Positions 4,254 through 50,224 of a stretch of DNA of 64,000 nt are shown piece after piece; position 1 is the stretch's first letter; every line of letters starts with the position of its first letter. The DNA comes from Candidatus Multivoraceae bacterium (GTDB lineage Bacteria > Acidobacteriota > Thermoanaerobaculia > Multivoradales > Multivoraceae), in assembly GCA_965223385.1 (NCBI GenBank), contig CBDCWR010000006.1, positions 137,896 to 201,895 on the forward strand, written 5' to 3'. Both the position numbers and the translations under genes were made by a program. A model generated the notes under the pieces. That model was not told where the DNA came from. It made no database searches and worked only from the letters and a program-made list of their open reading frames with translations.

Positions 4254-6233
4254 CTAGTGGTAGTACGCCATGCAGCCCGGCTCCACCTTCTGCGGCATGC
4301 CCGGTGGGTACTCGTTGGTCCAGAACTCCTTGATCGCCTGGCAGTTGATCAGCGTCGAGACGCCCTGGTCGGCCGCGAGCCGATAGCTCCGCTCGAGCGC
4401 CTTTTTGAAGTCTTCAGCGCGGTGCACGTACTCGCCGCGCGCGCCGAGGCCTTCGGCGATCTTCTCGTAGCGCAGGTTCTCCTGGAACAGGTACATGTGC
4501 TGGGAGCGCGCGCTCCGGCGCCCCGAGCCCCACACGCCCCAGGCGTTGTTGTTGTACACGACCAGCACCACCGGCAACTTGTACTTGGCCAGCGTCTCGA
4601 TCTCCATGCCCGAGTAGGCGATGCCTGCGTCGCCGGTGATGGCCACGATCGGCGCTCCCTGGTGTGCCTTCTGCACGCCCGCGCCGTTCTGGACCGCCGC
4701 GGCGGCGCCGACCGCGTAGCCGACGTCGGGTCCGATGGCGCCGTACTGGTAGGCACCATTGAGGATCTGGCCCGGCCTCAGTGCCTGCAGATAGCGCCGC
4801 GTCGCGCGTGCGATGCCGTAGCCACCAGACACGACGGTCGTCTGGTCGGCCGGGAGGTCACCGCCGTAGAGCACGTCGGCGAGACCCTGTGCGATCACGA
4901 ACGGGTGCACGCACTCCGCCTTGGCGCTGTGCTGTAGACCAAGCGCCGTGTACTCCTCGTTCTCTTTTTGGAACTTCGCGCGCGCCGCGGCGAGCTCTGC
5001 GCGCCAACTGTCGCGGGAGGTCTTCGGGAGCGCGTTCTCGAGTGCCTCGAGGAAGGCGCGCTCGCCCGCCACGATGCCGAGATCGATCGGCAGATTGCGG
5101 CCGATGTCCTCCGGCTCCGGGTCGACGCGGATGATGCGCGCGTCGGGGTCGAACGCGTACTCCCCGGCGCCCGGCATGCAGTACTGCCCTACGAGGATCA
5201 CGAGGTCGACGGAAAGCAGGGCGTCGGGCGCAACGGAGGCGGACAGCGGGTGATCGTCGGGGAAGTGCCCGCGGCTCGGGCCGGACTCGACCACCGCGAT
5301 GTCCGCCCGTTCGGCGACCGCCCGGAGAGCGTCCCAAGCGCGGTCGTAGAAGCAGCCGGTGCTGGCCACGATCATCGGGCGCTCGGCCGTGCGGATCATC
5401 GCGACGGCCTTCTCGATGTCCTTGGGGCCGGGGTGGGGTTTGTTGTCGCTGCGGTAGCGCGATTTGTCGTAGAAGTACTCCAGGTCTTCGGGGCTCTCGA
5501 AGCGCGCGCGGGCGACCTCGCCGGGAAAGTCGAGGTGGACGGGGCGCGGCACGCCGCTCCGCAGCTGCCGGAAGGCATAGGCGGCGTACTCCCACACCCG
5601 ATTGGGCGTGATGAGGCGCTTGCCCCACTTCTTCAGGCCCTCGGTGGTCGGCTGCTGGTAGCCGCGCTGGATGTTGCGCTCGGTGTCGTCTCCGCCGACC
5701 GTCATGTTGCTCGCGAGCACGAGCAGCGGCGTGCGCGCCGAGTTCGCCGCGCCGATGTTCATGATCATGTTGGTGAAGCCCGGACCTTCGGTGCCCGAGC
5801 AGGCGGCGATCTCACCGCTCGAGCGGATGAAACCGTCGGCCGCGGCACACATGTTGCCCTCGGTGCGGCCGCCGTAGCTCGGGATCCCCTCCGCCGCGAT
5901 CGAGTTGATGACCGTGTAGTTGCCCGGCGCGCAGAAGAGTGCGCCGAGCTCCTCCTCGCGGCAGGCCCGTGCGAAGACCTGGGCGCCGATCATCGGGAAC
6001 TCGGCCGGCGTGGGGGCCTGGGCGCGCGACTCCGGAATCTCGGCGGGGATCTGGATCGGAGGCTCTGTGGTGTCTCCGGCGGCGGCCGCTCCGGCGGCTG
6101 CCAGGGGCGTCGCCTGCGTGGTCGCGAGCGCGGCCACGGCGGCGCCACCCTTGGCCGACGACTCGAGGAAGCCGCGGCGGGAGACCCCGCCGGCCGTCTT
6201 CGCAGGGCTGTTCTGGGTGCCTTTCTTCTTCAT
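4254..6233 (-). CDS. Tat-exported thiamine-diphosphate-dependent enzyme (ALS/POX/benzoylformate decarboxylase superfamily)
   Basis: The internal start MKKKGTQNSPAKTAGGVSRRGFLESSAKGGAAVAALA has the canonical twin-arginine motif SRRGFL. The ThDP domains are present (GTEGPGFTNMIMNIGAA; GDAGIAYSGMEIETL...VVYNNNAWG). A gaggag RBS is present. Confidence 0.85.
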   Translation of the reverse strand: MKKKGTQNSPAKTAGGVSRRGFLESSAKGGAAVAALATTQATPLAAAGAAAAGDTTEPPIQIPAEIPESRAQAPTPAEFPMIGAQVFARACREEELGALFCAPGNYTVINSIAAEGIPSYGGRTEGNMCAAADGFIRSSGEIAACSGTEGPGFTNMIMNIGAANSARTPLLVLASNMTVGGDDTERNIQRGYQQPTTEGLKKWGKRLITPNRVWEYAAYAFRQLRSGVPRPVHLDFPGEVARARFESPEDLEYFYDKSRYRSDNKPHPGPKDIEKAVAMIRTAERPMIVASTGCFYDRAWDALRAVAERADIAVVESGPSRGHFPDDHPLSASVAPDALLSVDLVILVGQYCMPGAGEYAFDPDARIIRVDPEPEDIGRNLPIDLGIVAGERAFLEALENALPKTSRDSWRAELAAARAKFQKENEEYTALGLQHSAKAECVHPFVIAQGLADVLYGGDLPADQTTVVSGGYGIARATRRYLQALRPGQILNGAYQYGAIGPDVGYAVGAAAAVQNGAGVQKAHQGAPIVAITGDAGIAYSGMEIETLAKYKLPVVLVVYNNNAWGVWGSGRRSARSQHMYLFQENLRYEKIAEGLGARGEYVHRAEDFKKALERSYRLAADQGVSTLINCQAIKEFWTNEYPPGMPQKVEPGCMAYYH

Positions 6234-7326: not shown

Positions 7327-8426
7327 AGGTGCTGGACACACGTGAAGACGGCTCGCAGCTGCTGCAGATCGACGCGCTCGACGAGGTGGATCTGCAGGCC
7401 CTGCTCGACATGGTCGATGGAGCTTGGCGCCTCGACTACGCCGGCGAGCCGCGGGAGGACTTCGACGAGCCCACGCTGCGCAAGATGATGCGCGGCGGGG
7501 AGACCTTCGGCGTGGTCTCGACGGACGCCGACGGTGCGCCGACGGGTCTCGAGCTGGCGATGAAGCGGAAGCTCTGGGTGCCGTCTGCGCAGCGCGAGCT
7601 GTGCGCGTACTACGTCACCGCGTTCTCGGTGTCGCCGGACCACCGGCGTCGGGGCCTCGGTAAGTGGGTGCTCGGCGGCATCAACCGGGTCGCCTTCGAG
7701 GAGCGGGGGGCTGACCTGATCGTCTCGACGTTTCACGACGGCCACGCCGGGTCCCCGACCGTGCAGGCCACCTTCGACGCCATCTCTGGCTGGGGAGTGT
7801 GTCGGTTCCACCGGTCGCCGATCTTCAGTCGGCGCCTCGACCAGGAGCCGCTCGCGCCGGCCGATCCGCCTGTGCGAGCCCTTCGCCTCTTCGTGCCGGC
7901 GGGCGCCGAGGAGCTGGCCGCGGAAGATCGAGCCGGTGCCTGTGCGGCGCCATTGCAGCGCGCCGAGCTCCATGACTGGGTGCGGCACGGGGTCGGGGCC
8001 ACCTTCCTCTGGGAGGGCAGCTTCCGGGAGCGGTTCCTGCACGAGAGAGGTGCGGAGAGCGGCACGCTCTGGATCGACTTCGGAGACGGAGCCGAGGCGC
8101 TCGCGCTGTACGACACGATGGCCATGAGTCTCGACGAGCGCAAACTGCGCCCGGTCGGCCAGCTGCAGGGGCTGTTCGTCCGCGGTGGGGGTGCAGCGAC
8201 CGCGGACCAGGGAGAGCGTGTGCTGCGCACCGTGGCCCAGGAGCTCGTGCAGCGCAACTGCTTCGCGCTGAGCCTGCTCGACCTCGGAGCGGTGCCCGCT
8301 CCGGCTCTGGAGGAGCTGGGCTTCAGGCCGCTCGACGACATCATGGCCTTCGCCGTACGGGGCCCGCGCGAGAACGTCGAGCTGTTCGAGGGTCTGGAGC
8401 CGCCGTTTTTCCTCGACTGGACGTGA
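7323..8426 (+). CDS. GNAT-family N-acetyltransferase with C-terminal extension
   Basis: VSPDHRRRGLGKWVLGG is the acetyl-CoA-binding R-x-x-G-x-G motif. The protein is 367 aa. Confidence 0.7.
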   Translation: MKVLDTREDGSQLLQIDALDEVDLQALLDMVDGAWRLDYAGEPREDFDEPTLRKMMRGGETFGVVSTDADGAPTGLELAMKRKLWVPSAQRELCAYYVTAFSVSPDHRRRGLGKWVLGGINRVAFEERGADLIVSTFHDGHAGSPTVQATFDAISGWGVCRFHRSPIFSRRLDQEPLAPADPPVRALRLFVPAGAEELAAEDRAGACAAPLQRAELHDWVRHGVGATFLWEGSFRERFLHERGAESGTLWIDFGDGAEALALYDTMAMSLDERKLRPVGQLQGLFVRGGGAATADQGERVLRTVAQELVQRNCFALSLLDLGAVPAPALEELGFRPLDDIMAFAVRGPRENVELFEGLEPPFFLDWT

Positions 8427-8443
8427 CGAGGACTCGCGCGCCC

Positions 8444-8905
8444 TCAGGGCTGCATCTGGTTCTGGAACGTCGCCATGTCGAAGTAGTCGCGCCAGGCCGC
8501 GATCTTGTCGCCGCGCAGCTCGAACGCGCCCATGACCGGCAGCTCGACCTTCCGCTCGCCGAAGACGAAACGGTCGACGCGCTCGTTGTAGACCATCTTG
8601 CCGGCCTCGGCGCTGCCGAGAACTTCGAACTCCACCGACTGCGCGTTCGTCAGGTAACCGGAGATCGCGGCGCGGATCGCGTCGAGACCCTCCGCCGGAT
8701 CAGTCGGCATGTTGTGGTAGACCGCGTCTTCCGTGAAGAAGCTCATGATCTTCTCGAGATCCTGCGCATCGAACGCAGCCATGAACTCCTCCACGATGCA
8801 GAGCCGACAGGGCTCGTCCTGCTGGGCGAGAGCTGCGGGTGCGGCGACGATCGCCGTCAGCATTGCGAGGGCGCCGACTCGGAGCGGAGCGGGGATCATG
8901 CGCAT
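8444..8905 (-). CDS. secreted SnoaL/NTF2-like protein (limonene-epoxide-hydrolase-like fold)
   Basis: The start MRMIPAPLRVGALAMLTAIVAAPAALA is preceded by aaggagg. The product has an NTF2-like core. The remainder of the longer ORF is Arg-rich junk. Confidence 0.7.
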   Translation of the reverse strand: MRMIPAPLRVGALAMLTAIVAAPAALAQQDEPCRLCIVEEFMAAFDAQDLEKIMSFFTEDAVYHNMPTDPAEGLDAIRAAISGYLTNAQSVEFEVLGSAEAGKMVYNERVDRFVFGERKVELPVMGAFELRGDKIAAWRDYFDMATFQNQMQP

Positions 8906-9002
8906 GAGGCCTCCTTTGGATCTGGCGCGACCGCGTGGTCTTGCCGAGGGATGGTGGGCAGTGTAGCGACCTTCCCGCGAGAGAGCGGCTCGGCGACAGG
9001 CG

Positions 9003-9038
9003 CCCCGGGAGCCCCGGGAGCCCCGGGAGCCCCGGGAA
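9003..9038. repeat. 9-bp tandem repeat (ccccgggag) x4 in a divergent promoter region
   Basis: The sequence cgCCCCGGGAGCCCCGGGAGCCCCGGGAGCCCCGGGAaag lies between the minus-strand gene starting at 8905 and the plus-strand gene starting at 9176. Confidence 0.8.
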
Positions 9039-9175
9039 AGTAGACTGCTGCTTTCCAGCCAACAGAATTGCTTCCGCGCTCCGATTCCACGGACCGCACT
9101 TGCGCCCCGCCTTCGGCATGATGCGTGGCGGCGCGCCGGATGGCCGGCCGTGGGGAGCTCGGAGAGGAGACCGTC

Positions 9176-11245
9176 ATGAGACGGACGCTTTGGATTCAGG
9201 GCAGTACGGCGCTCGCGATGGCAGCGCTCGGGCTCGGTGCGTGCGCCCCTTCTGCGGACGTTGACGAGCCACCCCAGGAGGTGGCAGCCCAGCGCATCAC
9301 CGCTGCAGACGCCGAGCCAGGGAGCTGGCTCACCCACGGGCGGACGTACTCGGAGCAGCGGTTCTCGCCGCTCGATCAGGTCGACCTCGACTCGGTCGGT
9401 CGTCTGGGTCTCGCCTGGACGTACGACACCGGCAAGCGGCGCGGGCACGAGGCGACACCCCTCGTGGCCGACGGCGTCATGTACTTCACCTCACCGTGGA
9501 GCGTCGTGTACGCGGTCGACGCCGCCACGGGGGAGGAGAAGTGGATCTACGACCCGGACGTTCCGGGCCCCTGGGGCCGCAACGCGTGCTGTGACGTGGT
9601 CAACCGCGGAGTCGCCCTGTGGAAGGGCCACGTCTACCTCGGCACACTCGACGGCCGGCTGGTGAAGATCGACGCCGCGACGGGCGAGCCCGTGTGGGAC
9701 ATCAACACCATCGACCGTGAGCGCCCGTTCACGATCACGGGCGCACCAAGGGTCGTGAAAGGAAAGGTCATCATCGGCAACGGCGGAGCCGAGTACGGAG
9801 TGCGCGGCTACGTCAGCGCCTACGACGCGGACACCGGCGACATGTTGTGGCGCTTCTTCACCGTGCCGGGCGACCCTTCGCTGCCGTTCGAGCACGATGG
9901 CCTCGCCGAGGCGGCGGAGACCTGGAGCGGCGAGTGGTGGCACATCGGCGGCGGCGGCACGGTGTGGGACTCCATGGCCTACGACCCGGAGCTCGACCTC
10001 CTCTACGTCGGCACGGGCAACGGCACTCCCTGGGCGCGCTCGCATCGCAGCCCCGGCGGGGGCGACAACCTCTATCTGGTCTCCATCCTGGCCCTGGATC
10101 CGGACGAGGGGCGTCTGGTGTGGCACTACCAGACGACTCCCGCAGACAACTGGGACTACACGGCGACGCAGCACATCATGCTCGCGGATCTCCAGATCGA
10201 CGGGGAGCCGCGGCAGGTTCTCATGCAGGCGCCGAAGAACGGCTTCTTTTTTGTGCTCGACCGCGCGACGGGTGAGCTGATCTCGGCCGAGAAGTTCGCG
10301 CGGGTGACGTGGGCGACACACGTCGATCTCGAGACCGGGCGGCCCGTCGAGTCGGAGGAGGCCAACTACGACGAGGTGGCCCAGGTGATCTACCCCGGGC
10401 CCGGCGGCGCGCACAACTGGCAGCCGATGGCGTTCCATCCCGGGGAGGGCCTGGTCTACATTCCGGCCCACGATCGGCCGTCCTACTACGGCTTCGACGA
10501 GAACTTCGAATACACGCCGGGCGGCAACTGGAACGTCGGCCTGGGGCTGACGGACGAGGAGATCGCGAACCGTCCACCGATGGAGCGCCGCGCCTTCCTC
10601 CTGGCGTGGGATCCGGTCGCGCAGGAGGCGCGGTGGTCGCACGACCAGCCTTCGGGCTCGAACGGCGGCCTGCTCGCCACCGCCGGAGGCCTCGTCTTCC
10701 AGGGCACATCCGACGGCAAGTTTGCGGCCTACGACGCCGCCAGCGGTGAGCCGGTCTGGGACGTGCAGCTCGACATTCCGGCGCTCGCGCCGCCGGTCTC
10801 CTACGAGATCGACGGAGAGCAGTACGTGAGCATCCTTGCCGGCTTTGGCGGGGGCATCGCGCTCACCAAAGAGACGCAGGGGCGCATGTTCACCTTCAAG
10901 CTGGATGCGAACGAAGAGTTGCCCGAGGTTCCCGATCGGACGCTGGTCGTCGCCGACGTCTTCGAGCCCAGCGGGACCCCCGAGCAGATCGCACGTGGTG
11001 GCCGGCTCTACCAGCGGCACTGCCGCCGCTGTCACAACGGGCGCGGCACCATCACCGATCTGCGTTACTCCCGCGCCGCGGTGCACAACGGCTGGGACTC
11101 CATCGTGCTCGAAGGTCGCTACGGCACCATGGGCATGGACTCGTTTGCCGACGTCTTGACGCCGCGGGATGCGACGGACATCCACCGGTGGGTGATCGCC
11201 CAGATGGAAGAAGCCCGGAGCACTGCGGATGCCGATGGGCGGTGA
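9176..11245 (+). CDS. PQQ-dependent quinohaemoprotein alcohol dehydrogenase (type II ADH: PQQ propeller plus C-terminal cyt c)
   Basis: There is a lipoprotein-like signal (LGLGACAPS) and the vicinal Cys pair NACCDV. The WDYT motif indicates a Ca-type site. The C-terminal CRRCH haem c motif is present. The sequence ggagaggag sits upstream. Confidence 0.9.
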   Translation: MRRTLWIQGSTALAMAALGLGACAPSADVDEPPQEVAAQRITAADAEPGSWLTHGRTYSEQRFSPLDQVDLDSVGRLGLAWTYDTGKRRGHEATPLVADGVMYFTSPWSVVYAVDAATGEEKWIYDPDVPGPWGRNACCDVVNRGVALWKGHVYLGTLDGRLVKIDAATGEPVWDINTIDRERPFTITGAPRVVKGKVIIGNGGAEYGVRGYVSAYDADTGDMLWRFFTVPGDPSLPFEHDGLAEAAETWSGEWWHIGGGGTVWDSMAYDPELDLLYVGTGNGTPWARSHRSPGGGDNLYLVSILALDPDEGRLVWHYQTTPADNWDYTATQHIMLADLQIDGEPRQVLMQAPKNGFFFVLDRATGELISAEKFARVTWATHVDLETGRPVESEEANYDEVAQVIYPGPGGAHNWQPMAFHPGEGLVYIPAHDRPSYYGFDENFEYTPGGNWNVGLGLTDEEIANRPPMERRAFLLAWDPVAQEARWSHDQPSGSNGGLLATAGGLVFQGTSDGKFAAYDAASGEPVWDVQLDIPALAPPVSYEIDGEQYVSILAGFGGGIALTKETQGRMFTFKLDANEELPEVPDRTLVVADVFEPSGTPEQIARGGRLYQRHCRRCHNGRGTITDLRYSRAAVHNGWDSIVLEGRYGTMGMDSFADVLTPRDATDIHRWVIAQMEEARSTADADGR

Positions 11246-26108: not shown

Positions 26109-26426
26109 TCAGGCAAGGGACTCTTTCCTTCGGGAGAGCGCAATGACGCGCTCGTGAAAGCGGGCCGTGGCGTCACGTGAGCGCCTGCCCTTCGCCGTGG
26201 TGGAGTAGGCGCGCTCGCGCACGATCTGGCCGTTCAGGATCTCCTGCTCGTACCTGCCACGCACGAGGCCACTCTCTTCGAGCCGCGACATGAGACGGTA
26301 GAACGTGGGGCCCGCCTTCGGGAGCCCCAGAGCCGCGAGCTCCTCACGCACCTCGCGACCCGAGAGCTCCGTCTCGGACAGGATGCAGAGCACGGCGAAC
26401 TGGAGGTGGGGGAGTGGGGTCTTCAT
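26109..26426 (-). CDS. PadR-family transcriptional regulator
   Basis: MKTPLPHLQFAVLCILSETELSGREVREELAALGLPKAGPTFYRLMSRLEESGLVRGRYE is the PadR winged helix. Confidence 0.75.
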   Translation of the reverse strand: MKTPLPHLQFAVLCILSETELSGREVREELAALGLPKAGPTFYRLMSRLEESGLVRGRYEQEILNGQIVRERAYSTTAKGRRSRDATARFHERVIALSRRKESLA

Positions 26427-26596
26427 GCCAGAGATGCTTCTTTGACAGGTTACCTCATGGAAGGTGAGCATCTTCTGCGCCCGTCGCTGGCTCGAGTCAG
26501 AGCGCGAGGCTCCCCAGTGCCGAGCCGTGGGCGAGAGCGTCGGGTCTTTGGATGTCAACTCCTTCGCAGGAGGAGGCCATGCTCAGTGCTTTCGAG

Positions 26597-26620
26597 TTAT
26601 GTTACATTATGTAATGTGAC
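26597..26620. promoter_or_regulatory. AT-rich 13-bp perfect palindrome TTACATTATGTAA (ATGT/ACAT half-sites); putative PadR operator
   Basis: The sequence ttATGTTACATTATGTAATGTga is the only strongly AT-rich patch in the padR/MBL divergent intergenic region. It sits 50-80 nt upstream of the MBL start. Confidence 0.5.
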
Positions 26621-26675
26621 TGAGCGTCAGCATGCAGATCAGACGAAGGGCGGGCGGTGGCCACGCTGGAGAAGG

Positions 26676-27689
26676 GTGCTTCTGGCCGGGGTCGTCCTCG
26701 TGCTGGGATGCGCGATTCTGGTGTGGCTCTCCTTCTGGCGGGTCATGTCGAGCGTCATGGAGCGCCAGTCCAGGCAGGCCGAGATCGTCGTCACCCAGAT
26801 CGCGGATCACCTGTACATGCTCGACGCGACGCTCGGCGACCGACAGCTGGGTGCCAGCCACGTCGTCTCCATCGGTACGGAAGGAGTGCTGTTCGTCGAC
26901 GCGCCGATGACCCAGGCCCTTCACGACAAGGTCTGGGCCGCGCTCGAGGGCATCGAGCCGACCGTCGCAGAGCGTTTGCTGACCGTGATCAACACGCACG
27001 CTCATCCGGACCATGCGCGCGGCAATGCCTTCTGGCCGCCATCCACCGAGATCGTCGCGCACCGCAGCACGAGGGATCGGCTGGCGGACAGCGTGCGGCC
27101 ATTCTGGTTCCTTCCTGCGGTCCCACCGCTCCGCGGGAGCGCACTGCCGAGTGCCACCTTCGAGCGCACCCACGCGCTGGAGCGCGCCAGCGAGACGGTC
27201 CAGCTTCTCCATGTGGGGGCGGGGCACACCGACGGAGACGTGGTCGTCTTCTTCGAGCGATCGCGCGTCGTTCATCTCGGAGACCTCTTCCATGGGGTCG
27301 GCGGCCATCCAGCCGCCGACTGGCGCAACTCCGGCGGGGATCCGAGGGGCCTGGTCGAGGGTCTCGATGCGGTCCTCTCGCGGCTTCCGGACGACGTGCG
27401 CGTCGTCGGGGGACACGGCGGTGTCGGTCAGGTCTGGTCGAGAGAAGACCTGGAGACCTACCGCAACCTGGTCGCTGAGATGACCGAGAGCGTCTGGTCG
27501 AAGATCCAGAGCGGCCATACGCAGGACGAGGTGCTCCAGGAAGGTGTTCCGCAGGAGTGGCGCTGGTGGTTCGAGCGCGCCCGGAACGACTCCGTCATGC
27601 ACGGGCCCGCCGAGGGGTGGCTCGAGAACCTCTTCCAGGCGCTCTTGCACGGCGAGCGCGCAGCGCCGACGCCCGCGCCGCGCCCCTGA
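26676..27689 (+). CDS. metallo-beta-lactamase-fold hydrolase with N-terminal membrane anchor
   Basis: A ggagaagg RBS precedes a GTG start. INTHAHPDHARGN is the HxHxDH motif. Downstream His residues include GAGHTDGD. Confidence 0.75.
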   Translation: MLLAGVVLVLGCAILVWLSFWRVMSSVMERQSRQAEIVVTQIADHLYMLDATLGDRQLGASHVVSIGTEGVLFVDAPMTQALHDKVWAALEGIEPTVAERLLTVINTHAHPDHARGNAFWPPSTEIVAHRSTRDRLADSVRPFWFLPAVPPLRGSALPSATFERTHALERASETVQLLHVGAGHTDGDVVVFFERSRVVHLGDLFHGVGGHPAADWRNSGGDPRGLVEGLDAVLSRLPDDVRVVGGHGGVGQVWSREDLETYRNLVAEMTESVWSKIQSGHTQDEVLQEGVPQEWRWWFERARNDSVMHGPAEGWLENLFQALLHGERAAPTPAPRP

Positions 27690-27729
27690 GCCCTGCTCCT
27701 CCGGGGAGCGTGCGTGGCATCATCGACGC

Positions 27730-29112
27730 ATGACCCGCCGCCTGACGTCGCTCCTGCTGCTCGCCGCGCTGGTGCTCGCCGGCACCGGCGCATTGTCGGC
27801 CGCCGGACCCGAGATCGAGGTGGGCCAGCTGTTTCCGGACCTTGCGCTGCGCACCCTCGACGGCGACGTGCGGCGCGTCTCGGACTATCGCGGCACGAAG
27901 CTGGTCCTGCACGTCTTCGCCTCGTGGTGAGCGGGCTGCCGCGTTCACGTGCCCGGGTGGCACGACGCGACCGCGGAGCTCCAGCGCACCGGCAAGGTGC
28001 AGATGCTCGGCATCATCCAGGAGCAGAACCCGGATCGGTGCCGGCTCTTCATGCAGTGGAAGGAGATGAGCTGGCCGATCCTGGTGGACACCTTCGACCA
28101 GCTGGAAGTGAGCGTGGTGCCGCTGACGTACGCGATCGACGAGCACGGCATCGTGCGCCGCGCGGGCCTGCGCCTGCGCGACGCCGAGACGATCGAAGAG
28201 ACGTTTCTCGACCATTCGTGGCCCGCCCCTGAAGCCGTGGGGCCGAAGATCGAAGAGAGCTCGTGGCAGGTGCAGGCGCGCCGCGCCACGTCCGGCAATG
28301 CGGAGGATGTCGCGCAGGCCGTCGCGACGTTCCGCCGCCTCGCCCTGGCAGATCCCGACGACGGCTGGGCGCACTTCCGCCTCGCAGCCGCGCATCGCCT
28401 GCGGTACGACTCATCTGCGCGCCAGCCGGGTGACTTCCAGGCGGCCGTCGACCACTGGCAGCGGGCGCTCGAGATCGATCCGAACAACTACATCTGGCGC
28501 CGCCGCATCCAGCAGTACGGCCCGCGGCTGATCAAGCCGTACCCCTTCTACGACTGGATCCCCCGGGCACGGGAGGAGATCGCCGCGCGCGGGGAGGAGC
28601 CCGCGCCGCTGGTGGTCGAGCCGAGTGGCGCAGAGATCGCGCGGCCTGCCCAGGAGCTCGTCGCGGCCGGAGGCGAGACGAGCCCGGACCCCGAAGCGAA
28701 GGTGCTGCAGGACGGAGTGGGGTCCACCGGGCGCCTCATCGAGATCGAGACGACCGCGGTACCGCGGGCGCTCGCGCCCGGCGAGACCCTGCGCGCCCAC
28801 ATCGTGCTGCGCCCCAACGAAGATCTCCTGGCGCACTGGAACAACGAATCGGACCCCCTCGAGATCTGGGTCGACGCGCCTCCCAGCTGGGCGATCGAGT
28901 CGCGGTTGCTCCGCACCGTCAACGCCGATGCGGCGGTGAGCACCGAGACGCGAAGGGTCGAAGTGGAGCTCTCCGTGCCGGCCGACGCACCTCCGGGTGA
29001 TGTCCGCCTCCCGGGCTACGCGCTCTACTACGTGTGCGAGGACGAGATCGGGACCTGCCTCTACCGCCGCCAGGATCTCGAGGTCACGGTCGAGGTTCTG
29101 CCATCTCGCTGA
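27730..29112 (+). CDS. periplasmic TlpA/redoxin-like thiol-disulfide oxidoreductase with C-terminal TPR/beta domain; candidate selenoprotein (in-frame TGA at 27928-27930 read as Sec: WUAGC)
   Basis: ORFs 27544..27930 and 27949..29112 are in the same frame. They are separated only by TGA exactly at the first Cys of the redox motif (KLVLHVFASW-TGA-AGCRV). The thioredoxin fold continues after it (WPILVD...VPLTYAIDEHGIV). There is a signal peptide. Confidence 0.6.
27948..27964 (+). other. candidate bacterial SECIS stem-loop
   Basis: The sequence CGTGCC-cgggt-GGCACG is a perfect 6-bp stem with a G-rich loop. It starts 17 nt downstream of the in-frame UGA. Confidence 0.4.
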
Positions 29113-29173: not shown

Positions 29174-30922
29174 CTAGTCGGGAAGGGCGAACACGAACAG
29201 GTTGTTGCCCGAGCTCGGCTTGAGCTCCGGGGTGAGCCCCACGCGCAGCGCCGCCGACGGGCTGCCGGTGCTCGCGGCGACGTACTGCCGGCCGTCGACG
29301 GCGAACGAGATCGGGAACCCGGTGAGCGGCGAGCCGAGGTTGATCTTCCAGAGCACGTCGCCGGTCTCGTGGTCGAGCGCCATGAAACGACCGTTCATGT
29401 CACCCACGAAGATCAGACCGCCAGCGGTCGCAAACAGCGACATGGTCGCCGCGCGCTGCTCGAAGACAAACAGCGACTTCCCGGTCGATGCCGAGACCGC
29501 GTGGACGGTGCCGCTCTTGTCGGTGCCGGGCGCGATCTGGTGCTCGGCGTCGAGCGCGTAGATGGGGAGTCGCCCGGCCTTCGTGGCGGTCATCGTGGCG
29601 CACGCGTTGCGCATGGGCATGTACATCGCGTTGGTGATGGGGCTGTAGGCGCCGGCCTGCCAGTCTTTGCCGCCGATGTAGGTCGGGCACACGAGCGCCT
29701 TCTGCTCGAGCTCGCTGAACACCACCTCGGAGTTCTCGCTCACGGCGCCCGTGGCGCCGTCGATCATGTCGATCACGTTCTGGTACACGGTCGGCCGCGC
29801 CCAGAGGAACTCCCCTGTCTCGCGGTCGAGCGTGTACACCACGCCGGTCTTGCCCGGGATGCCGGTCATCACCTTGCGCCGCTCGCCGGGCTCGATGCGG
29901 GGGTTGATCCAGGCGACCTCGTCTGGGCTCGGCGCCACCTCGGTGTCGACGAGCAGACGCTCGAACGGGTGGTCGAGATCCCAGTGGTCGTTCAGGTGCT
30001 GGTAGTGCCAGGCGATCTCGCCCGTCGCCCCCCGCAGAGCGAGCGTGGAGTTGTGGTACAGGTGTCGGTTGTCTTTGCTGCTCAGCAGGAACTTCGGCGC
30101 AGGAGAGGTGACCGAGGTACCGATGTAGACGAGGTCGAGCTCGGGGTCGTAGCTCGGCACCATCCACGTGCCGACGTGGGTGCGCTTCTCGAACGGCACG
30201 TCGCCCCACGTCTCGTCACCGGGCTCGCCCGGGGCGGGTACCGTGCGGCGGCGCCAGAGCTCTCGCCCGGTCTTGGCGTCGTGCGCCGTGACCACGCAGG
30301 CGTCGGGGCCGCCGCGCGGAAGGCAGCTGCGCCCCGAGAAGATCTTGCCGCCGCCCACGATCGGCCCCGAGCCCTGCATCGTGGGGTGCGTGTCGTAGTT
30401 CAGGATCTCGGTCTGCCACGCCTGCTCCCCGGTCTCGGCGTCGAGCGCAAAGACGAAGCCGTCGGTGCTCGTGTCGAGGATCAGGCGACCGTAGATCGCG
30501 AGGTTGCGGTTGTTGGCCGTGAGGCCGAGCTTGCCCTGTTTGACGAGGCTCTCGTGCCGCTCGCGGCTGTGCTCCCAGATCAGATCGCCTGTCACCGCGT
30601 CGATCGCCTGCGTCACGTCGGCCGGGTTTGGCATGTAGAGAACGCCGCCGTACGCGAGCGGCGTGCCCTGCTGCCGCCCATCGTGCAGAGCGCGCGTCCA
30701 CACGAGCCGCAGGTTCTGCACGTTGCTGCGGTCGATCTGTTCGAGCGGGCTGAACGCCCAGCCGTCCTGTGTACGTCGCCACATGAGCCAGTCGTCGTCG
30801 GACGGGCTCTGCAGCATCTCGTCCGTCACCGGGACAAAAGTGCGGCCCGCGGAGCCCGTCTGGGCCTCGAGAAGCCATGGGGTGACCGCAAGGGCGGCGC
30901 CGAGAAGAGCCGTGCGCAGCAT
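29174..30922 (-). CDS. PQQ-dependent dehydrogenase, methanol/ethanol family-like, with DxD (WDLD) lanthanide-type signature
   Basis: A signal peptide is present. Eight-bladed propeller motifs are present (W...G). HLNDHWDLDHP has Asp two residues after the catalytic Asp, as in XoxF/PedH. There is no vicinal CC. Confidence 0.8.
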   Translation of the reverse strand: MLRTALLGAALAVTPWLLEAQTGSAGRTFVPVTDEMLQSPSDDDWLMWRRTQDGWAFSPLEQIDRSNVQNLRLVWTRALHDGRQQGTPLAYGGVLYMPNPADVTQAIDAVTGDLIWEHSRERHESLVKQGKLGLTANNRNLAIYGRLILDTSTDGFVFALDAETGEQAWQTEILNYDTHPTMQGSGPIVGGGKIFSGRSCLPRGGPDACVVTAHDAKTGRELWRRRTVPAPGEPGDETWGDVPFEKRTHVGTWMVPSYDPELDLVYIGTSVTSPAPKFLLSSKDNRHLYHNSTLALRGATGEIAWHYQHLNDHWDLDHPFERLLVDTEVAPSPDEVAWINPRIEPGERRKVMTGIPGKTGVVYTLDRETGEFLWARPTVYQNVIDMIDGATGAVSENSEVVFSELEQKALVCPTYIGGKDWQAGAYSPITNAMYMPMRNACATMTATKAGRLPIYALDAEHQIAPGTDKSGTVHAVSASTGKSLFVFEQRAATMSLFATAGGLIFVGDMNGRFMALDHETGDVLWKINLGSPLTGFPISFAVDGRQYVAASTGSPSAALRVGLTPELKPSSGNNLFVFALPD

Positions 30923-31055
30923 GGGACCGACCTTTCTGTTGGGGAGAAGGTCAACCATCGTAGCGGATGGCAGCGGACGCGGCCGCCGCCGTCGACCGAG
31001 GTCCTTGCGGCGAAGGGCCACTCACGACGTCCGAGGCAGACGGCCTCGGCCTCTT

Positions 31056-31565
31056 TCACTCTGCCGCGAGCAGTGCCTGCCAGCGCTCCGGGTAGATCTG
31101 CAGGATCTCGATCAGGGCGCCGTCAGGGTCCCTGCACACGGCGATCTCGGCCAGCTTGCCGTGCCCCGGCTGCGGCGTCGACAGGAACTCGACCCCCTCC
31201 GCCTCGAGACGTGTCACCTCGGCGGGGAGATCTTCGGTCGCGAGACAGATGCGCACGAGTCCGCGGTCGCGGTTCTCGAGTGGCGCTCGGGGGCTCTCCG
31301 CATCGATCTCGGTGAGATCGAGCTTCGGGAATCCGTCGCCGAGCTGCAGGATGCACGCGCGTCCCCCGGTGCCGCGCTCGAGGCCAAGCGCCTCGGCTGC
31401 GCCGTCCGGCAGCTGCCCCGCCTCGTCAGCGCTCAGTGCGAGATAGGGGATCCCCGGAAGGAAGACCTCGAAGCCGAGCTTCCGGTAGAACTCGATCGCT
31501 CGCTCGAGGCTGGCGACGTTGAGGTTGATGTGCCCCCAGCTGAACCGCGGCTGGACTTGTGTCAT
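31056..31565 (-). CDS. VOC/glyoxalase-family protein
   Basis: The start is MTQVQPRFSWGHINLNV. Two beta-alpha-beta-beta-beta modules are present. Confidence 0.7.
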   Translation of the reverse strand: MTQVQPRFSWGHINLNVASLERAIEFYRKLGFEVFLPGIPYLALSADEAGQLPDGAAEALGLERGTGGRACILQLGDGFPKLDLTEIDAESPRAPLENRDRGLVRICLATEDLPAEVTRLEAEGVEFLSTPQPGHGKLAEIAVCRDPDGALIEILQIYPERWQALLAAE

Positions 31566-31677
31566 CGAGTGCTCCTTGCGCGTGAACCGTCGGAGGAGTG
31601 TGTCGGAGCACGGCGCTCCGTTGGCTCCCCTACGGCCTTGTCTCGGGGGTGATGCGCTGTCCTCTCGACGAGGAGTG

Positions 31678-33315
31678 CTACGCCGACCGGCAGAAGCACG
31701 ACGAGCCGATGACCACGTCGGCACGCGCCATCACCAGATCGAGCTGCTGGCTCACCAGGACCCTCTCGACGGCCTCGCCACGGCGCTCCAGACACTCGTG
31801 GAGGCCGTGCAGCGCCCACACGTTGCCGGGGTGCTGGCAGGGTCGGTAGAGCTCGTCGGTGAGACCGAGGTCGGCACGGTAGAGCTGCTCCGCCTCGTCG
31901 TAGCGCTCCTGCTCCATGAGCAGCGCGGCGAGCGCGTGCCGTGGCGGCTGCATCCAGCCCCAGGGCTCGTCGTAGACGAGGTTGTCGCTGAAGTTGGCGG
32001 CGCTCCGCAGGTGCTCGAGACCCGTGCTGATGTCGCCGGCCTTGTAGTGCAGCTCTCCCTGCGCCATCTCGGCCGCGATCTCGAGCACCGCACTCGCCGG
32101 GTTGTTGAACATGTAGCGCGACTCCTGCACGGCGTCTTTTGCGGCGAAGAACGCCTCCAGCTCGCTCTTGGCCTCGTCAGCGCGCCCGAGGTTCGCGAGC
32201 GCGATCGTGCGGGCGTAGCGGAGCAGAGCGGTGGTGAAGCTGAACAGCTCGGCATCATCCGGAAGCGGCACGTCCAGGATCTCTTCCCACATGCCGAACC
32301 GCACCATCACGTGCGAGTGGATGCCCCAGAAGGCCTCGAAGAGGTCCGGCAGGAACGCGACGGTCTCCGTCGGCAGCAGGCGATGCAGCTCCTCGGCGGA
32401 GTCGAGCGCCACCTGCTTCTGGCCGAGCAGCATGGCGCCGTAGGCCTCGAAGTGCACGTTGTGGACGCGGTACACCGTGTAGAAGTTCTCGGCGCCACGG
32501 AGGTCGGTGTACCGCCGGTCGACGCGCGCCGCCTGGTGGTTCCGCGCGATGGTGTTCTGGTAGTCGCCGCAGAGCACGTCGATGTGTGTCGCCATGTGGA
32601 CGAGGTGGCCCGACTCCGGCGACTGCCGCACGAGCGCATCGCCGTGCGGAAGGGCCAGCTCCGGGGTGGGCGACATCTCCATCAGATGGATGTACATGTG
32701 CAGCAGCCCGGGGTGCTTCCACGCCGCTGTGTCGCGTGCGAAGGCGGTCTCGAGCACCGTGCGCGCCTCCTCGGTGGACGCCCCGTCCGCCGGTGTGCCG
32801 GTGGGCAGGTCCCAGAGCCGCCACGGGGTGCGCCCCATCAGGCTCTCGGCGAACACGCTGCAGACGTCGAGGTCGGTGGCGTGGGCCTCGTACACGGGGC
32901 GCATCGCTTCGGCGAAGGCATCGTTGTAGGGGCCGTAGTCTTCGGTGGCCGGATCGTCGGGGTAGCGGACCTTCAGAGCCTCGAGCATTACGCGCTCGAC
33001 CGCGCTGCTTTCTGGGATCGCGAGGCCGTCGGCGATCGCCCGGTGCGCGGTCTCGAGAGCAGCCTCGCGCTCGGCCGGCTCGAACATCTCCCACAGCTTG
33101 TTGTAGTTCGGTCCGATCGCGTACGCGATTCCCCACTGGGCCATGGCGCAGCCCGGGTCCGCCTCGAGCGCGGCTTCGAAGCAGACGATGGCCTCGTCGT
33201 GGTTGAACCCGTAGAGCCAGTTGAGGCCCTGGTCGAACCAACGTTGAGCGGTCGAGTCGGTGGACACCACGCGGCTGTGGTCGCCCAGGTCGAAGTGGGC
33301 TGGACTTGTGGTCAT
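31678..33315 (-). CDS. cytoplasmic TPR-repeat protein
   Basis: MTTSPAHFDLGDH... follows a gaggagg RBS. Multiple TPR-like helices are present (AIVCFEAALEADPGCAMAQWGIAYA). Confidence 0.7.
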   Translation of the reverse strand: MTTSPAHFDLGDHSRVVSTDSTAQRWFDQGLNWLYGFNHDEAIVCFEAALEADPGCAMAQWGIAYAIGPNYNKLWEMFEPAEREAALETAHRAIADGLAIPESSAVERVMLEALKVRYPDDPATEDYGPYNDAFAEAMRPVYEAHATDLDVCSVFAESLMGRTPWRLWDLPTGTPADGASTEEARTVLETAFARDTAAWKHPGLLHMYIHLMEMSPTPELALPHGDALVRQSPESGHLVHMATHIDVLCGDYQNTIARNHQAARVDRRYTDLRGAENFYTVYRVHNVHFEAYGAMLLGQKQVALDSAEELHRLLPTETVAFLPDLFEAFWGIHSHVMVRFGMWEEILDVPLPDDAELFSFTTALLRYARTIALANLGRADEAKSELEAFFAAKDAVQESRYMFNNPASAVLEIAAEMAQGELHYKAGDISTGLEHLRSAANFSDNLVYDEPWGWMQPPRHALAALLMEQERYDEAEQLYRADLGLTDELYRPCQHPGNVWALHGLHECLERRGEAVERVLVSQQLDLVMARADVVIGSSCFCRSA

Positions 33316-46618: not shown

Positions 46619-48905
46619 TCAGGAGAGGGCCTGATTGGCCAGGGCGGGGGAGGCGGTCTCGTTCGCCCGGGAGGGGGTCGGCTCACCAGCCCCGGCGAGG
46701 CAGAGGAGAGACGGCAGGAGAAGCACGTCGGCGGCGAAGGCGACGAGCAGGCTCAGTGTGGTGGCGAGACCAAAGTGCACGAGGGGGAGGAACCCGCTGA
46801 AGCCGAGAGCCAGGAACCCGGTTCCCAGGCTCGCGGTGGTGACGAGCAGCGCGCGCCCGACGCGATGGAAGACCTCCTCGAGGGAGCGGCCGGGCGCGAG
46901 GTGACCGAGCACGTGTGCGGTGTCGTCGACAGCCAGCCCGAGGGCCACGCAGCCGACGATGGCCGTGGCGAACGAGAGCGGCACGCCGAGCCAGCCCAGA
47001 ATGCCGAGGCAGACCAGGATGGGCAGGGTGTTCGGGATCATCGCCAAGGCGGCGAGTCGGGCCGAGCGCAGCACCAACAGCATGGCGACGAAGATCGCAG
47101 CCACTGCGACCAGGAGTCCGCGGACCATGCCGTGCGCGATGGCGTCCATGGCTTTGGGAAAGAGCAGCCAGGTGCCGAGGACCTCGGTGTCGACACCCGC
47201 GGGAGGGGTGACGTCGAGCAAGCGGTCGCGCAGAGCCAGGATCTCGCTCGACGAGCGACTGTTGACACGCAGGACGAGGTTGAGGGCGCTCCGGTCGAAG
47301 TCGATGTAGTGGCGAAGGTCGTCCGGGTCGCCGGCGTTCTCGTAGAGGACCATGTACTGCATCGCGAGGGCCTCGTCGGAGAAGTAGGAGCGCTCTCTCT
47401 CCGGATCGAGGACATCGTCCATCAGTGCGAAGTAGTCGAGCAGCGAGAGGCTGCGCGTGACGATGGGCGAGGTCTCCGCGCTCCGAAGCCACTGGCGCGC
47501 GAAGCGCATCACGTGCGGCTGCGAGCGCGCCGTCGGGCATGCCGGTGGAGATCACCGCGTGGAGGAAAAGGCTGCCGCCGAGGTTCTCCTGGAGGAAACG
47601 GTCGCTCTGACGGTGGTAGTGATCCGGCTTCCAGAAGGTGAGCGGGTCCGACTCGATCTCGAGCCGCGCCATTCCCGCAGCGGCCAACGCCACGAGCGGA
47701 GCTGCGATGGCGAGCGTGCGCCAGGGGTGGCGCGCCCACGAGATGCCGCGGACCGTGAGCCCTCCGAGGCCGGCGAAAGGGAGCGTGTCGATGCGCAGCT
47801 CGAAGCGCTGCACGAGGGCCGGAAGGAGCAGGAGACTGGCGCAGAGGCATCCAAGAATGCCGACGGCCAGACTCAATCCGAGACTACGGATCGACGGCAC
47901 CGGCATGACCAGGAGCGCCAGGAAGCCGGCACCGGTGGAGAAGGCCGAGAGCATGCAGGATCTCGCGCACAGGCGCAGGAGGCCCACCCCCGGCGCTTCG
48001 TCCTCGGGAACGGCGGCCAGCAGCTGGATCATGTACAGCGCGTACGTGGAAGAGGTCGCGAGCAGCACGGTCGGCATCGTCGACAGCACGACGTTGAGTG
48101 GTGTGCCCGAGAGGCCGAGCCAGGCGATTGCGACGAGCTCGGTCCACGCGATGACGACCACCAGCAGCCCGAGCGCCCAGACCTTGCGGACGAAGAGCCA
48201 GAGGAGTGCGAGCACCAGGACAACGGCGATCGTGGTGAGAACGATCAGGTCGCGAAGTACGATGGTCGTCGATTCGTGCTCGGCGGCGGGATAGCCCGCG
48301 ACCCACACCGGGACATTCGCGCCGGAGGCGAGGTCGTACACGCGCTGGACCAGGCTCTCGTTGAGCTTGGCCTGCGACGGGAACGGCGTCCCCTCTCCCG
48401 CGATCCGCGGCACGATGACCGTGGCGACGGCACCGAGGTCGGCAGAGACGAGGCTCCCCTCGTAGAGTCGATGGCCGCGGATGCGCGCGCGCAACGCTTC
48501 GATGTCTGCGTTCTCGACGCCGTCGGAGACCAGAGGCGACGCGTCGACGAACGTCGGGTCCGTGGCGCGCGCGCGCACGTCCTCCACGTTCGTCAGGTCG
48601 ATCACCTCGTCGACCTCCGGCAGGCTCTCGATCTCGAGGCGAAAGCGCTCGAGCATCTGGAGGGTGCCGTGGTCCAGCTTGTCGTCGCCCAGGTCGTAGC
48701 CCACGACCAGGATCTCGTCGTTCGAGAAGTCGAGCCGCACCTCCTCGTTGCGCGCGAGCTCGGGGTCGCTGTCGAGGAGCAGCTCGTCCAGTCCAGGCGC
48801 AACCTCCACGCGCACGGCAAGACCGGCGAGGAGCACGCCTGCCAGAGCGAACCCACAGAGGATGGCGGTCGAGCGGTGCTCCACCCAACCTTCGAGGAGC
48901 CTCAT
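46619..48905 (-). CDS. RND-superfamily (MMPL/HpnN-like) exporter, reading frame broken near 47500
   Basis: The N-terminal half lies in ORF 46683..48905 (TM plus periplasmic domain, becoming Arg-rich junk after ...ALRAPVASERGD). The C-terminal half lies in ORF 46619..47512 (MMRFARQWL... six TM helices). Confidence 0.7.
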
Positions 48906-48911
48906 GGCGCG

Positions 48912-49868
48912 TCAGTCGCAGTCGATGCAGAGGAAGAGATTGACGCCCAGCGGCTCCTGCAGCACGCGCACCTGGCCCTCTCCGAATCCGCACTGTCTGG
49001 CGAGGCTTCGGAGCTGCTCCTCGCTCCGGTGGATCAGGTGCCACTCTCCGAAGCGCATGTAGCTGAGGCTCGGGTTGTTGATCGAGAAGTTGCCCACCAC
49101 GATCTGCCCGCCTGGGGCGGCCAGTCCGCCCATGCGCTCGAGCAGGCGGCAGAAGTAGCTGTCACTCAGGTAGTCGAAGAGCCCGGCGGACCAGATCCAG
49201 TCGAACCTCTCCTTCGTCCGGTAGCGAAAGACGTTCTTCTGGACGAACGTGATGCGATCGAGATACGGCGCGCAGAGCTGCTTCGCGAACTCGATTGCGT
49301 TCGTGTCCTGGTCGACGCAGGTGAGCTCCACGTTGGCGTCCGGGTCCTCCTGGAAGAGCTCGGAGACGTCGCGGCACGGCCCGCTCGCGAGGTCGAGCAC
49401 CCGAAGAGGCTCCGGACCGGAGTGTCGCTCGAGGCGCTCCCGAAGGGCGCCCTTGAAGAAGTCCTTCCGGTTGCGCACGGCGGTTGGCGCAGACGACTGG
49501 TGGAAGTAGGCGTCCCACCGGACCAGCTCGGGCACCCGCGTGGTGCGCTGCTGGTAGATCCAGTCGATGATCTCGAAGTCGCCGGCGTAGCCGCGCAGTT
49601 TCAGGTAGGCCCGGCCCTGGCTGGTCTCCGGGGTCCAGGCACGAGGCATGGCGTGGCGGATCGTGTTGATCGACGCATCGTCGAGGAGGCCGGCGTCGTA
49701 GCGGACGAAGAGACCGTCGAGCCACTCCTCGAAGGCGGAGTAGTCGTCCGGCATGGGGCCGCCGCTCGCGTAGAGCTCCGACGCGAACGCGACGTCGGCG
49801 GCAATGTCCGAGCCGCGCAGGTGTGCTTCTTGGGGTCGAGGTTGTTCGAACGTGATTCCCGCTTCCAT
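48912..49868 (-). CDS. class I SAM-dependent methyltransferase
   Basis: VLDLASGPCRD is the motif I GxGxG-like SAM-binding site. The stop lies 7 nt before the RND start. Confidence 0.75.
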   Translation of the reverse strand: MEAGITFEQPRPQEAHLRGSDIAADVAFASELYASGGPMPDDYSAFEEWLDGLFVRYDAGLLDDASINTIRHAMPRAWTPETSQGRAYLKLRGYAGDFEIIDWIYQQRTTRVPELVRWDAYFHQSSAPTAVRNRKDFFKGALRERLERHSGPEPLRVLDLASGPCRDVSELFQEDPDANVELTCVDQDTNAIEFAKQLCAPYLDRITFVQKNVFRYRTKERFDWIWSAGLFDYLSDSYFCRLLERMGGLAAPGGQIVVGNFSINNPSLSYMRFGEWHLIHRSEEQLRSLARQCGFGEGQVRVLQEPLGVNLFLCIDCD

Positions 49869-50224
49869 CACCAGCTCCGATGTACTTCGTTGACGTCCAT
49901 GACGGCTCGCGGAGGCGCGGTCGAGGTGCAAGGCTCGATCAACAGATCGTCATTGCCTACGCCGCGGTATCCGAGATTTCCGCCGCATCGCCCGGTGGGA
50001 CGGACCTGTCGAGGTCTTTTTCGTTCACGAAGCGCGGAAGGAGGTTCTGAGGTCCGGACTCGAACCTCGGGCTGCCCAGTTTCTGGGCGGATCGCGCCCT
50101 CCGAGGGGCGCGCGGGGAGATCTATGCATGAACAGCTATTAGAATGGGGGATGCGCGGTCACGGGTCCGCCGCGCTGGGAGGTGTCCGACGGACTCGAGG
50201 CTCGAAATGACCTGGGAGGCCAAC

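Follow-up and report, generated by a model that had tools for sequence, protein, structure and literature searches.

The stretch of DNA analysed here, hereafter the window, comprises 64,000 nucleotides of a Candidatus Multivoraceae bacterium of the Acidobacteriota (GenBank assembly GCA_965223385.1, contig CBDCWR010000006.1), and it contains on its forward strand, at 27730-29112, a redoxin gene whose reading frame of 460 codons holds a single internal stop, the TGA at 27928-27930. Judging by the conservation of this codon and of the hairpin that follows it, TGA 27928 is almost certainly a selenocysteine (Sec) codon in a secreted thioredoxin-like redox protein, and 27730-29112 very probably encodes one exported selenoprotein of 460 residues, not two open reading frames (ORFs).

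The internal TGA is found in the context KLVLHVFASW*AGCRVHVPGWHD. An earlier note on this DNA, made from its letters alone, had described two same-frame ORFs parted only by a TGA, with which the translation of 27730-29112 agrees. The source annotation, made on a contig of 2,042,114 bp, splits the gene into a 66-aa protein before the TGA (P0282, 27730-27927) and a 387-aa protein after it (P0001), the latter beginning at a GTG at 27949, inside the stem of the hairpin. UGA also serves as a normal stop codon in the source genome, the redoxin gene itself, the adjacent MBL gene and an LEH gene of the window all ending in TGA. The gene and the features of its redox part are listed below in window coordinates, the counts referring to the window and 80 relatives (81 loci); SECIS stands for selenocysteine insertion sequence, and bSECIS for its bacterial form.

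27730..29112, + strand: complete coding sequence of the predicted selenoprotein, 460 codons including Sec, with its own stop TGA at 29110-29112
27730..27804, + strand: signal-peptide-like N-terminus (MTRRLTSLLLLAALVLAGTGALSAA), from sequence inspection, with a presumed cleavage site
27820..28161, + strand: TlpA/ResA-like thioredoxin-fold domain, residues 31-144, from Pfam and PDB sequence matches
27928..27930, + strand: putative Sec codon UGA, residue 67, position 1 of the U-A-G-C redox motif (TGA in 81/81)
27937..27939, + strand: codon of the predicted resolving Cys, C70 of UxxC, an invariant Cys (TGC in 64 and TGT in 17 of the 81 loci)
27948..27964, + strand: candidate bSECIS apical hairpin, stem CGUGCC/GGCACG and loop CGGGU at 27954-27958, from synonymous constraint, pairing and minimum free energy (MFE)

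The redox domain was characterized on the protein translated with Cys in place of Sec (U to C). Residues 31-144 matched the Pfam families AhpC-TSA (PF00578; 47.2 bits, cutoff 26) and Redoxin (PF08534; 30 bits, cutoff 26.6), and the search of solved structures aligned FASW-U-AGC-RVHVP to FWASW-C-GPC-KKSMP of the TlpA-like Etrx1 (2yp6). The TGA column corresponds to the first Cys of CxxC in 2yp6, 4hqz and 3kcm, and further PDB sequence matches were TlpA (1jfu), ResA (1st9) and StoA (3erw). Because of this alignment to solved TlpA-like proteins, the TGA can be assigned to the nucleophilic first-Cys position of the motif, which bears out the proposal of the earlier note that it falls at the redox-active position of a thioredoxin fold. 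The active site reads W-U-A-G-C; V130-P131 is invariant and would constitute the cis-Pro loop, with a presumed cis conformation (the input of the AlphaFold2, AF2, model began after the N-terminal 67 residues). A peroxiredoxin selenoprotein was also considered and rejected, the motif PxxxTxxC/U being absent from HVFASWUAGC, which has neither a Thr at –3 nor a Pro at –7.

Conservation of the TGA and of the downstream hairpin

A scan of GTDB with one genome per species revealed 499 genomes with a relative of the redoxin, and the DNA of the best 80 was analysed together with the window. These 80 loci sample the Acidobacteriota (Thermoanaerobaculia, Bryobacterales, Vicinamibacterales, Blastocatellia and Terriglobia), the Gemmatimonadota (including Longimicrobiales), the Planctomycetota (Phycisphaerae and Isosphaeraceae) and the Verrucomicrobiota. 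In 81/81 loci, drawn from these four phyla, the TGA occupied one and the same alignment column, and neither TGC nor TGT was found there in any of them. The relatives reach down to 46% identity, and all 81 downstream 75-mers were distinct. The frame upstream of the TGA was kept throughout as F/Y-R-G-x-K-x-x-L-H-x-F/W-A-S-W, with conserved residues encoded by varied synonymous codons, such as the Gly at –37 (GGC in 42, GGT in 17, GGG in 15 and GGA in 7 loci). In comparisons of the window with its two closest relatives, dN/dS was 0.15–0.24 over the 40 codons upstream and 0.10–0.12 downstream (0.15 and 0.10, respectively, against locus L001).

Protein databases gave the same picture from the other side. 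The search with the U-to-C sequence retrieved 2,038 relatives, the best 120 of which each cover only ~79–85% of the query; full-length matches that were aligned start at (M/V)HVPGWH or MPGWH, directly past the motif, with the exceptions of P0008, which starts at a later Met, and of the contig-end fragment P0019, which starts at AGCRVHVPGWH. Similarly, HMMER against 1.84 billion cluster representatives yielded 776 clusters at 50% identity, 329 of them at E <= 1e-30, and nearly all of the best 150 representatives start just past the Sec position (query residue 1). Since the proteins of the relatives begin right after the motif, gene callers must meet the same stop everywhere. The only full-length relative found was a degenerate paralog of 481 aa (P0275), in which FASS-S-ASS replaces FASW-U-AGC and both C-terminal cysteines are replaced as well (YALYTVKRVDTDSSLYLRQD), all four redox residues being lost jointly.

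The hairpin consists of the inverted repeat CGTGCC (27948-27953) and GGCACG (27959-27964) enclosing the loop CGGGT (27954-27958), 17 nt past the TGA, exactly where a perfect 6-bp stem had been noticed before. Its MFE is –9.6 kcal/mol, and the window has a single instance of TGA-N18-GTGCCNGNNTGGCAC, where chance would give 0.02. In a codon alignment of the 81 genes, synonymous-codon entropy was scored at columns at least 90% conserved. Normalised entropy was 0–0.42 at codons +6 to +11 and ~0.35–1.0, mostly 0.6–1.0, elsewhere; the only other four-fold site equally low was Gly +2, which is also biased (0.42). The constrained codons are His +6 (CAC in 74/81), Val +7 (GTG in 81/81), Pro +8 (CCC in 75/80), Gly +9 (GGG in 71/75), Trp +10 (TGG, its single codon) and His +11 (CAC in 77/80), while the other Val, Pro and Gly columns of the gene use three or four codons freely.

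The RNAalifold consensus structure corresponds to the 5-bp core of the stem, and the 6-bp stem was paired in 97.9% of cells versus at most 64% with slid partners. Its closing pair is C-G in 63 sequences, U-A in 3 and U-G in 3, which includes a compensatory C-G to U-A change; double changes are confined to one stem pair, in 3 sequences. Moreover, the wobble positions of the loop covary (columns 33 and 36 of alignment A2, window positions 27954 and 27957): CCC-GGG gives the loop C-GGG-U, and the rarer CC[A/G]-G[G/U]C, found in five loci (L006, L020, L027, L057 and L080), gives A/G-GGC/GUC-U, in which an extra A-U or G-U pair closes a triloop in place of the 5-nt loop. Every variant keeps G, then G or U, at loop positions 2–3. 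The lower stem that is predicted when the window is folded by itself was not conserved among the 81 loci.

The bSECIS model combines an apical loop of 3–9 nt, an upper stem of 4–16 bp, an MFE of –7.5 kcal/mol or lower, a G within the two initial loop positions, as a rule with G or U after it (N1-G-[G/U]-N-N2), and a distance of 16–37 nt from the UGA to the loop (PMC13188914). The hairpin at 27948-27964 falls within this model on every count: its loop has 5 nt, with G-G at positions 2–3, its stem has 6 bp, the spacing is 23 nt and the MFE is –9.6 kcal/mol. It is probably dual coding, for protein and SECIS at once, that fixes the peptide HVPGWH, given that ordinary TlpA-like proteins are variable there.

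A Sec gene lies within 6 kb of the redoxin gene in 6/80 loci, which belong to different lineages, a linkage far above random placement in multi-megabase genomes. A block of tRNA-Sec, selA, selB and selD, divergent from the redoxin gene, is present in L051 (1164-5878) and in L062 (1205-5748), the latter an Isosphaeraceae metagenome-assembled genome (MAG). The tRNA-Sec of L024 (5761-5855) is placed ~110 nt upstream of the redoxin gene, selB lies directly upstream of it in L060 (2-1468), and selA upstream of it in L006 (1434-2843) and L020 (188-1582). As a separate observation, selD is a Sec-encoding gene in its own right in both L051 and L062 (MDYGSCAG-TGA-AGKLP), with the TGA at 5846-5848 (–) and 5803-5805 (–), respectively; the post-UGA hairpin of the L051 gene has a GGU apical loop, and the fold in L062 is less clear.

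Proposed selenocysteine insertion and its alternatives

From the comparative evidence, we strongly infer SelB-dependent recoding of UGA 27928. The hairpin 18–34 nt downstream (CGUGCC-CGGGU-GGCACG) would act as a bacterial SECIS that recruits SelB-GTP-Sec-tRNA(Sec), selenocysteine being inserted and termination avoided. The product would then comprise a signal peptide, a TlpA/ResA-like domain with U67-A-G-C70, a TPR-like helical domain and an Ig-like sandwich with a Cys pair. By analogy with its fold family, it is predicted to be an exported TlpA-like thiol/selenol-disulfide oxidoreductase, in which Sec67, as the exposed nucleophile, would attack a disulfide, a sulfenate or a similar oxidised substrate of the cell envelope; resolution of the intermediate, as a selenenylsulfide, would fall to C70. 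More speculatively, the C-terminal Cys pair could serve as a second redox centre, or as a substrate-docking module, and exchange with the Sec site, as its invariance and its joint loss with the active site in the paralog P0275 might suggest.

Several observations weigh against this interpretation. Neither selA, selB and selD (tblastn with the E. coli proteins) nor tRNA-Sec was found in the 64-kb window, an absence that carries little weight, since the window is ~3% or less of the genome (contig of at least 2.04 Mb). The folding of the post-UGA stretch proposed by the earlier note did not come out in favour of a SECIS, the fold of the 63 nt after the UGA being no better than that of shuffled sequences (z = –0.3; 68% GC), and the Rfam scan of 27700-28200 gave no match to a SECIS family. 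The bacterial SECIS models of Rfam are narrow, so that this negative is uninformative. Given the single-sequence fold and the Rfam result, the window alone cannot settle the interpretation, and the hairpin is significant only by comparative analysis. With the stem almost invariant, classical compensatory covariation is also nearly absent. No CxxC orthologue was found among the cluster-representative matches or in the search with the N-terminal domain, and such an absence is unusual for selenoprotein families. Finally, the catalytic role and the kind of substrate proposed above are drawn from family analogy only, and the neighbouring genes offer no functional clue.

Among the alternatives, the one that fares best, and is still improbable, is that the family is Sec-encoding and the source genome has lost its Sec machinery, the UGA now terminating translation or being read through at a low level as Cys or Trp. 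This would fit the lack of Sec machinery in the window and of any other selenoprotein candidate there; the small share of the genome that the window represents tempers the former, and a relic would hardly be expected to retain a dN/dS, against the closest relative, of 0.15 before the UGA and 0.10 after it, together with an intact SECIS and an intact signal peptide.

It is very unlikely that the hairpin is an RNA or DNA element of another kind, such as a pause or attenuation signal or a start context for the GTG at 27949, or that the UGA is bypassed independently of a SECIS. The missing Rfam match and the use of the GTG within the stem as a start codon by gene callers could be read in this way. 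A product initiated at GTG 27949, however, would be without both active-site residues and a third of the thioredoxin fold, the first, and the hairpin agrees with all features of bSECIS elements in their canonical place, immediately 3′ of the UGA (PMC13188914), with sel genes and tRNA-Sec physically linked to the redoxin gene in six genomes.

A pseudogene or an assembly error, in which a TGC or TGT of the source genome was mutated or miscalled to TGA and which would suit the two separate ORFs of the source annotation, is effectively refuted by the conservation of the TGA in 81/81 loci, 80 of them independently assembled relatives that are no contaminant copies by their distinct 75-mers, and with the Cys codon nowhere among them; the earlier note had rightly doubted a simple sequencing artefact, as neither cause can give a conserved TGA with purifying selection on both sides of it in the lineage of the window itself, where the hairpin is intact and identical to the family consensus.

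Domain architecture and genomic neighbourhood

Beyond the redox site, selenocysteine insertion at UGA 27928 would give access to a long C-terminal part with the following features.

28261..28638, + strand: all-helical TPR-like middle domain, from AF2 helices and Pfam TPR signals
28477..28557, + strand: motif DPNNYIWRRRIQQYGPRLxKPYPFYDW, a run of invariant columns in alignments A1 and A3
28738..29097, + strand: C-terminal Ig-like beta-sandwich domain
29035..29058, + strand: Cys pair C436...C443 (CX6C) on either side of the turn that joins the final two strands, invariant in both A1 and A3

A signal-like N-terminus, basic and then hydrophobic, was present in 69/81 family members, some of them with a lipobox, and on this basis the protein is predicted to be extracytoplasmic. 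Lipobox-like signals (...L-[SAL]-[AS]-C-G...) were observed in seven Bryobacterales members (L010, L024, L028, L040, L054, L066 and L067), which suggests their anchoring as lipoproteins, unlike the protein of the window, whose signal peptide is of the AxA type.

The AF2 model, which covers the 393 residues after the UGA (model numbering = residue – 67), reached a pLDDT of 92 and a pTM of 0.89 and shows what remains of the thioredoxin fold, then an all-helical TPR-like domain and, at the C-terminus, a beta-sandwich. The helical domain corresponds to model helices 111-236 (pLDDT above 90), with Pfam TPR signals at residues ~191-253, and a weak Pfam beta-sandwich signal was found at residues 377-426. 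Outside the active site, no protein segment is more conserved than the motif DPNNYIWRRRIQQYGPRLxKPYPFYDW, which is near-invariant across the four phyla. Of the long TPR/beta-sandwich extension foreseen by the earlier note, the TPR-like helices were recovered as such, and the sandwich turned out to be a generic Ig-like fold. Its assignment as an nDsbD-like redox Ig domain was tried and rejected, as many unrelated Ig-like folds score equally or higher and sequence similarity to E. coli nDsbD is absent (hhalign probability 0.04).

The genes flanking the redoxin gene, at 26109-27689 and 29174-31724, encode a PadR-type regulator (–), an MBL-fold hydrolase (+), a pyrroloquinoline quinone (PQQ)-dependent dehydrogenase (–) and a glyoxalase-fold protein (–). 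An operon with the MBL hydrolase under the PadR-type regulator had been proposed; the MBL-fold gene does lie upstream of the redoxin gene, with the PadR-type gene divergent before it, but the arrangement is not conserved. No conserved gene neighbours were found across the 81 loci, the MBL gene recurring in a single further locus and the gene of the PQQ dehydrogenase likewise in one, and this putative operon is local context and not part of the system.

Two other same-frame ORF pairs of the window that are separated by a TGA, at 7736-9490 (–) and 46686-49949 (–), are merely adjacent genes: in the first, a LEH/SnoaL-domain protein precedes an ORF that has no Pfam match, and in the other, a methyltransferase precedes an MMPL transporter. 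The in-frame-TGA scan of the window provided no further selenoprotein candidates.

Significance and relation to known selenoproteins

Thioredoxin-fold proteins with a UxxC motif are the commonest kind of prokaryotic selenoprotein, and the mechanism proposed for the redoxin is textbook. Its interest lies in a widespread, apparently Sec-obligate, multi-domain family that is mis-annotated in the records examined and has an unusually constrained SECIS. Those GenBank and MAG members whose names were looked up are recorded as a truncated "hypothetical protein" or as a 66-aa fragment plus a "hypothetical/TPR protein" of ~390 aa. Recognising the family would correct such annotations (499 GTDB species genomes, ~776 clusters), would mark the genomes concerned as Sec users and would add a family to selenoproteome surveys of soil phyla that are seldom discussed in them. 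In the context of SECIS biology, the near-invariant hairpin dual-coded with HVPGWH, whose loop variants follow N1-G-[G/U]-N-N2, offers a natural experiment of unusual cleanness.

A wider proposal, tentative and rather unlikely to hold in all its parts, is that this would be an undescribed Sec-obligate family with no Cys orthologues, distributed among soil and sediment Acidobacteriota, Gemmatimonadota, Planctomycetota and Verrucomicrobiota, forming an exported three-domain module in which the Sec site exchanges with the Cys pair of the Ig domain, and whose SECIS fixes HVPGWH across phyla. If this were true, the frequent linkage to selABCD would make the family a principal reason why these lineages keep the Sec trait.

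The earlier note had placed the gene in a known class, the UxxC redoxins, and a 2026 catalogue of 119 selenoprotein families has several that are TlpA- or redoxin-like (PMC13188914). The redoxin family may already be among them under a generic name, such as the "Redoxin family protein" of PF08534. No description of the redoxin family or of its architecture was found in the literature searched (PMC13188914, PMC2398784, PMC5029168 and PMC12013277).

The nearest NCBIfam profile is NF041054, the "ResA-like WAxxUGC motif-containing protein", which is also a ResA/TlpA-like selenoprotein and which matched residues 13-259 over positions 57-315 of its 354. This match runs past the thioredoxin domain into the helical region, and the 354-position profile has no counterpart of the C-terminal sandwich. 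The score of 67.2 bits lies below the cutoff of 300 and the motif differs, being WAxx-U-G-C there and FASW-U-A-G-C here; therefore, the redoxin is not a member of NF041054.

Oxidoreductases of the TlpA/ResA/CcmG/Etrx type (1jfu, 1st9, 2yp6, 3erw) are likewise exported, share the fold and the conserved V-P of the cis-Pro loop, and their active site registers residue by residue with that of the redoxin (FWASWCGPC versus FASWUAGC). However, they are Cys-based, single-domain proteins of ~140–190 aa, whereas the redoxin is a predicted Sec-containing, multi-domain protein, and they have defined partners (such as CcdA/DsbD and cytochrome c or Cu-protein maturation), the redoxin giving no indication of a partner or of a substrate. 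The domain combination finds a parallel in SOQ1 of the plant thylakoid lumen (PDB 7djl; bioRxiv 10.1101/2021.03.16.435614), which joins a thioredoxin-like domain, an NHL domain and an nDsbD-like domain with a CX5C pair; its linker is NHL and it has no Sec, in contrast to the TPR-like linker and the putative Sec of the redoxin.

The closest likeness is that to the known thioredoxin/TlpA-like UxxC selenoproteins, which have the same fold, Sec in place of the N-terminal Cys of CxxC and a SECIS immediately downstream in the coding region, and whose redox function, like that of the redoxin, is predicted only. In comparison with them, the redoxin family presents no Cys orthologues among the matches found and a near-invariant SECIS encoding HVPGWH, and its proteins continue in a long, conserved extension made up of a TPR-like domain, the motif NNYIWRRRIQQYGPRLxKPYPFYDW and an Ig-like domain that carries a CX6C pair.

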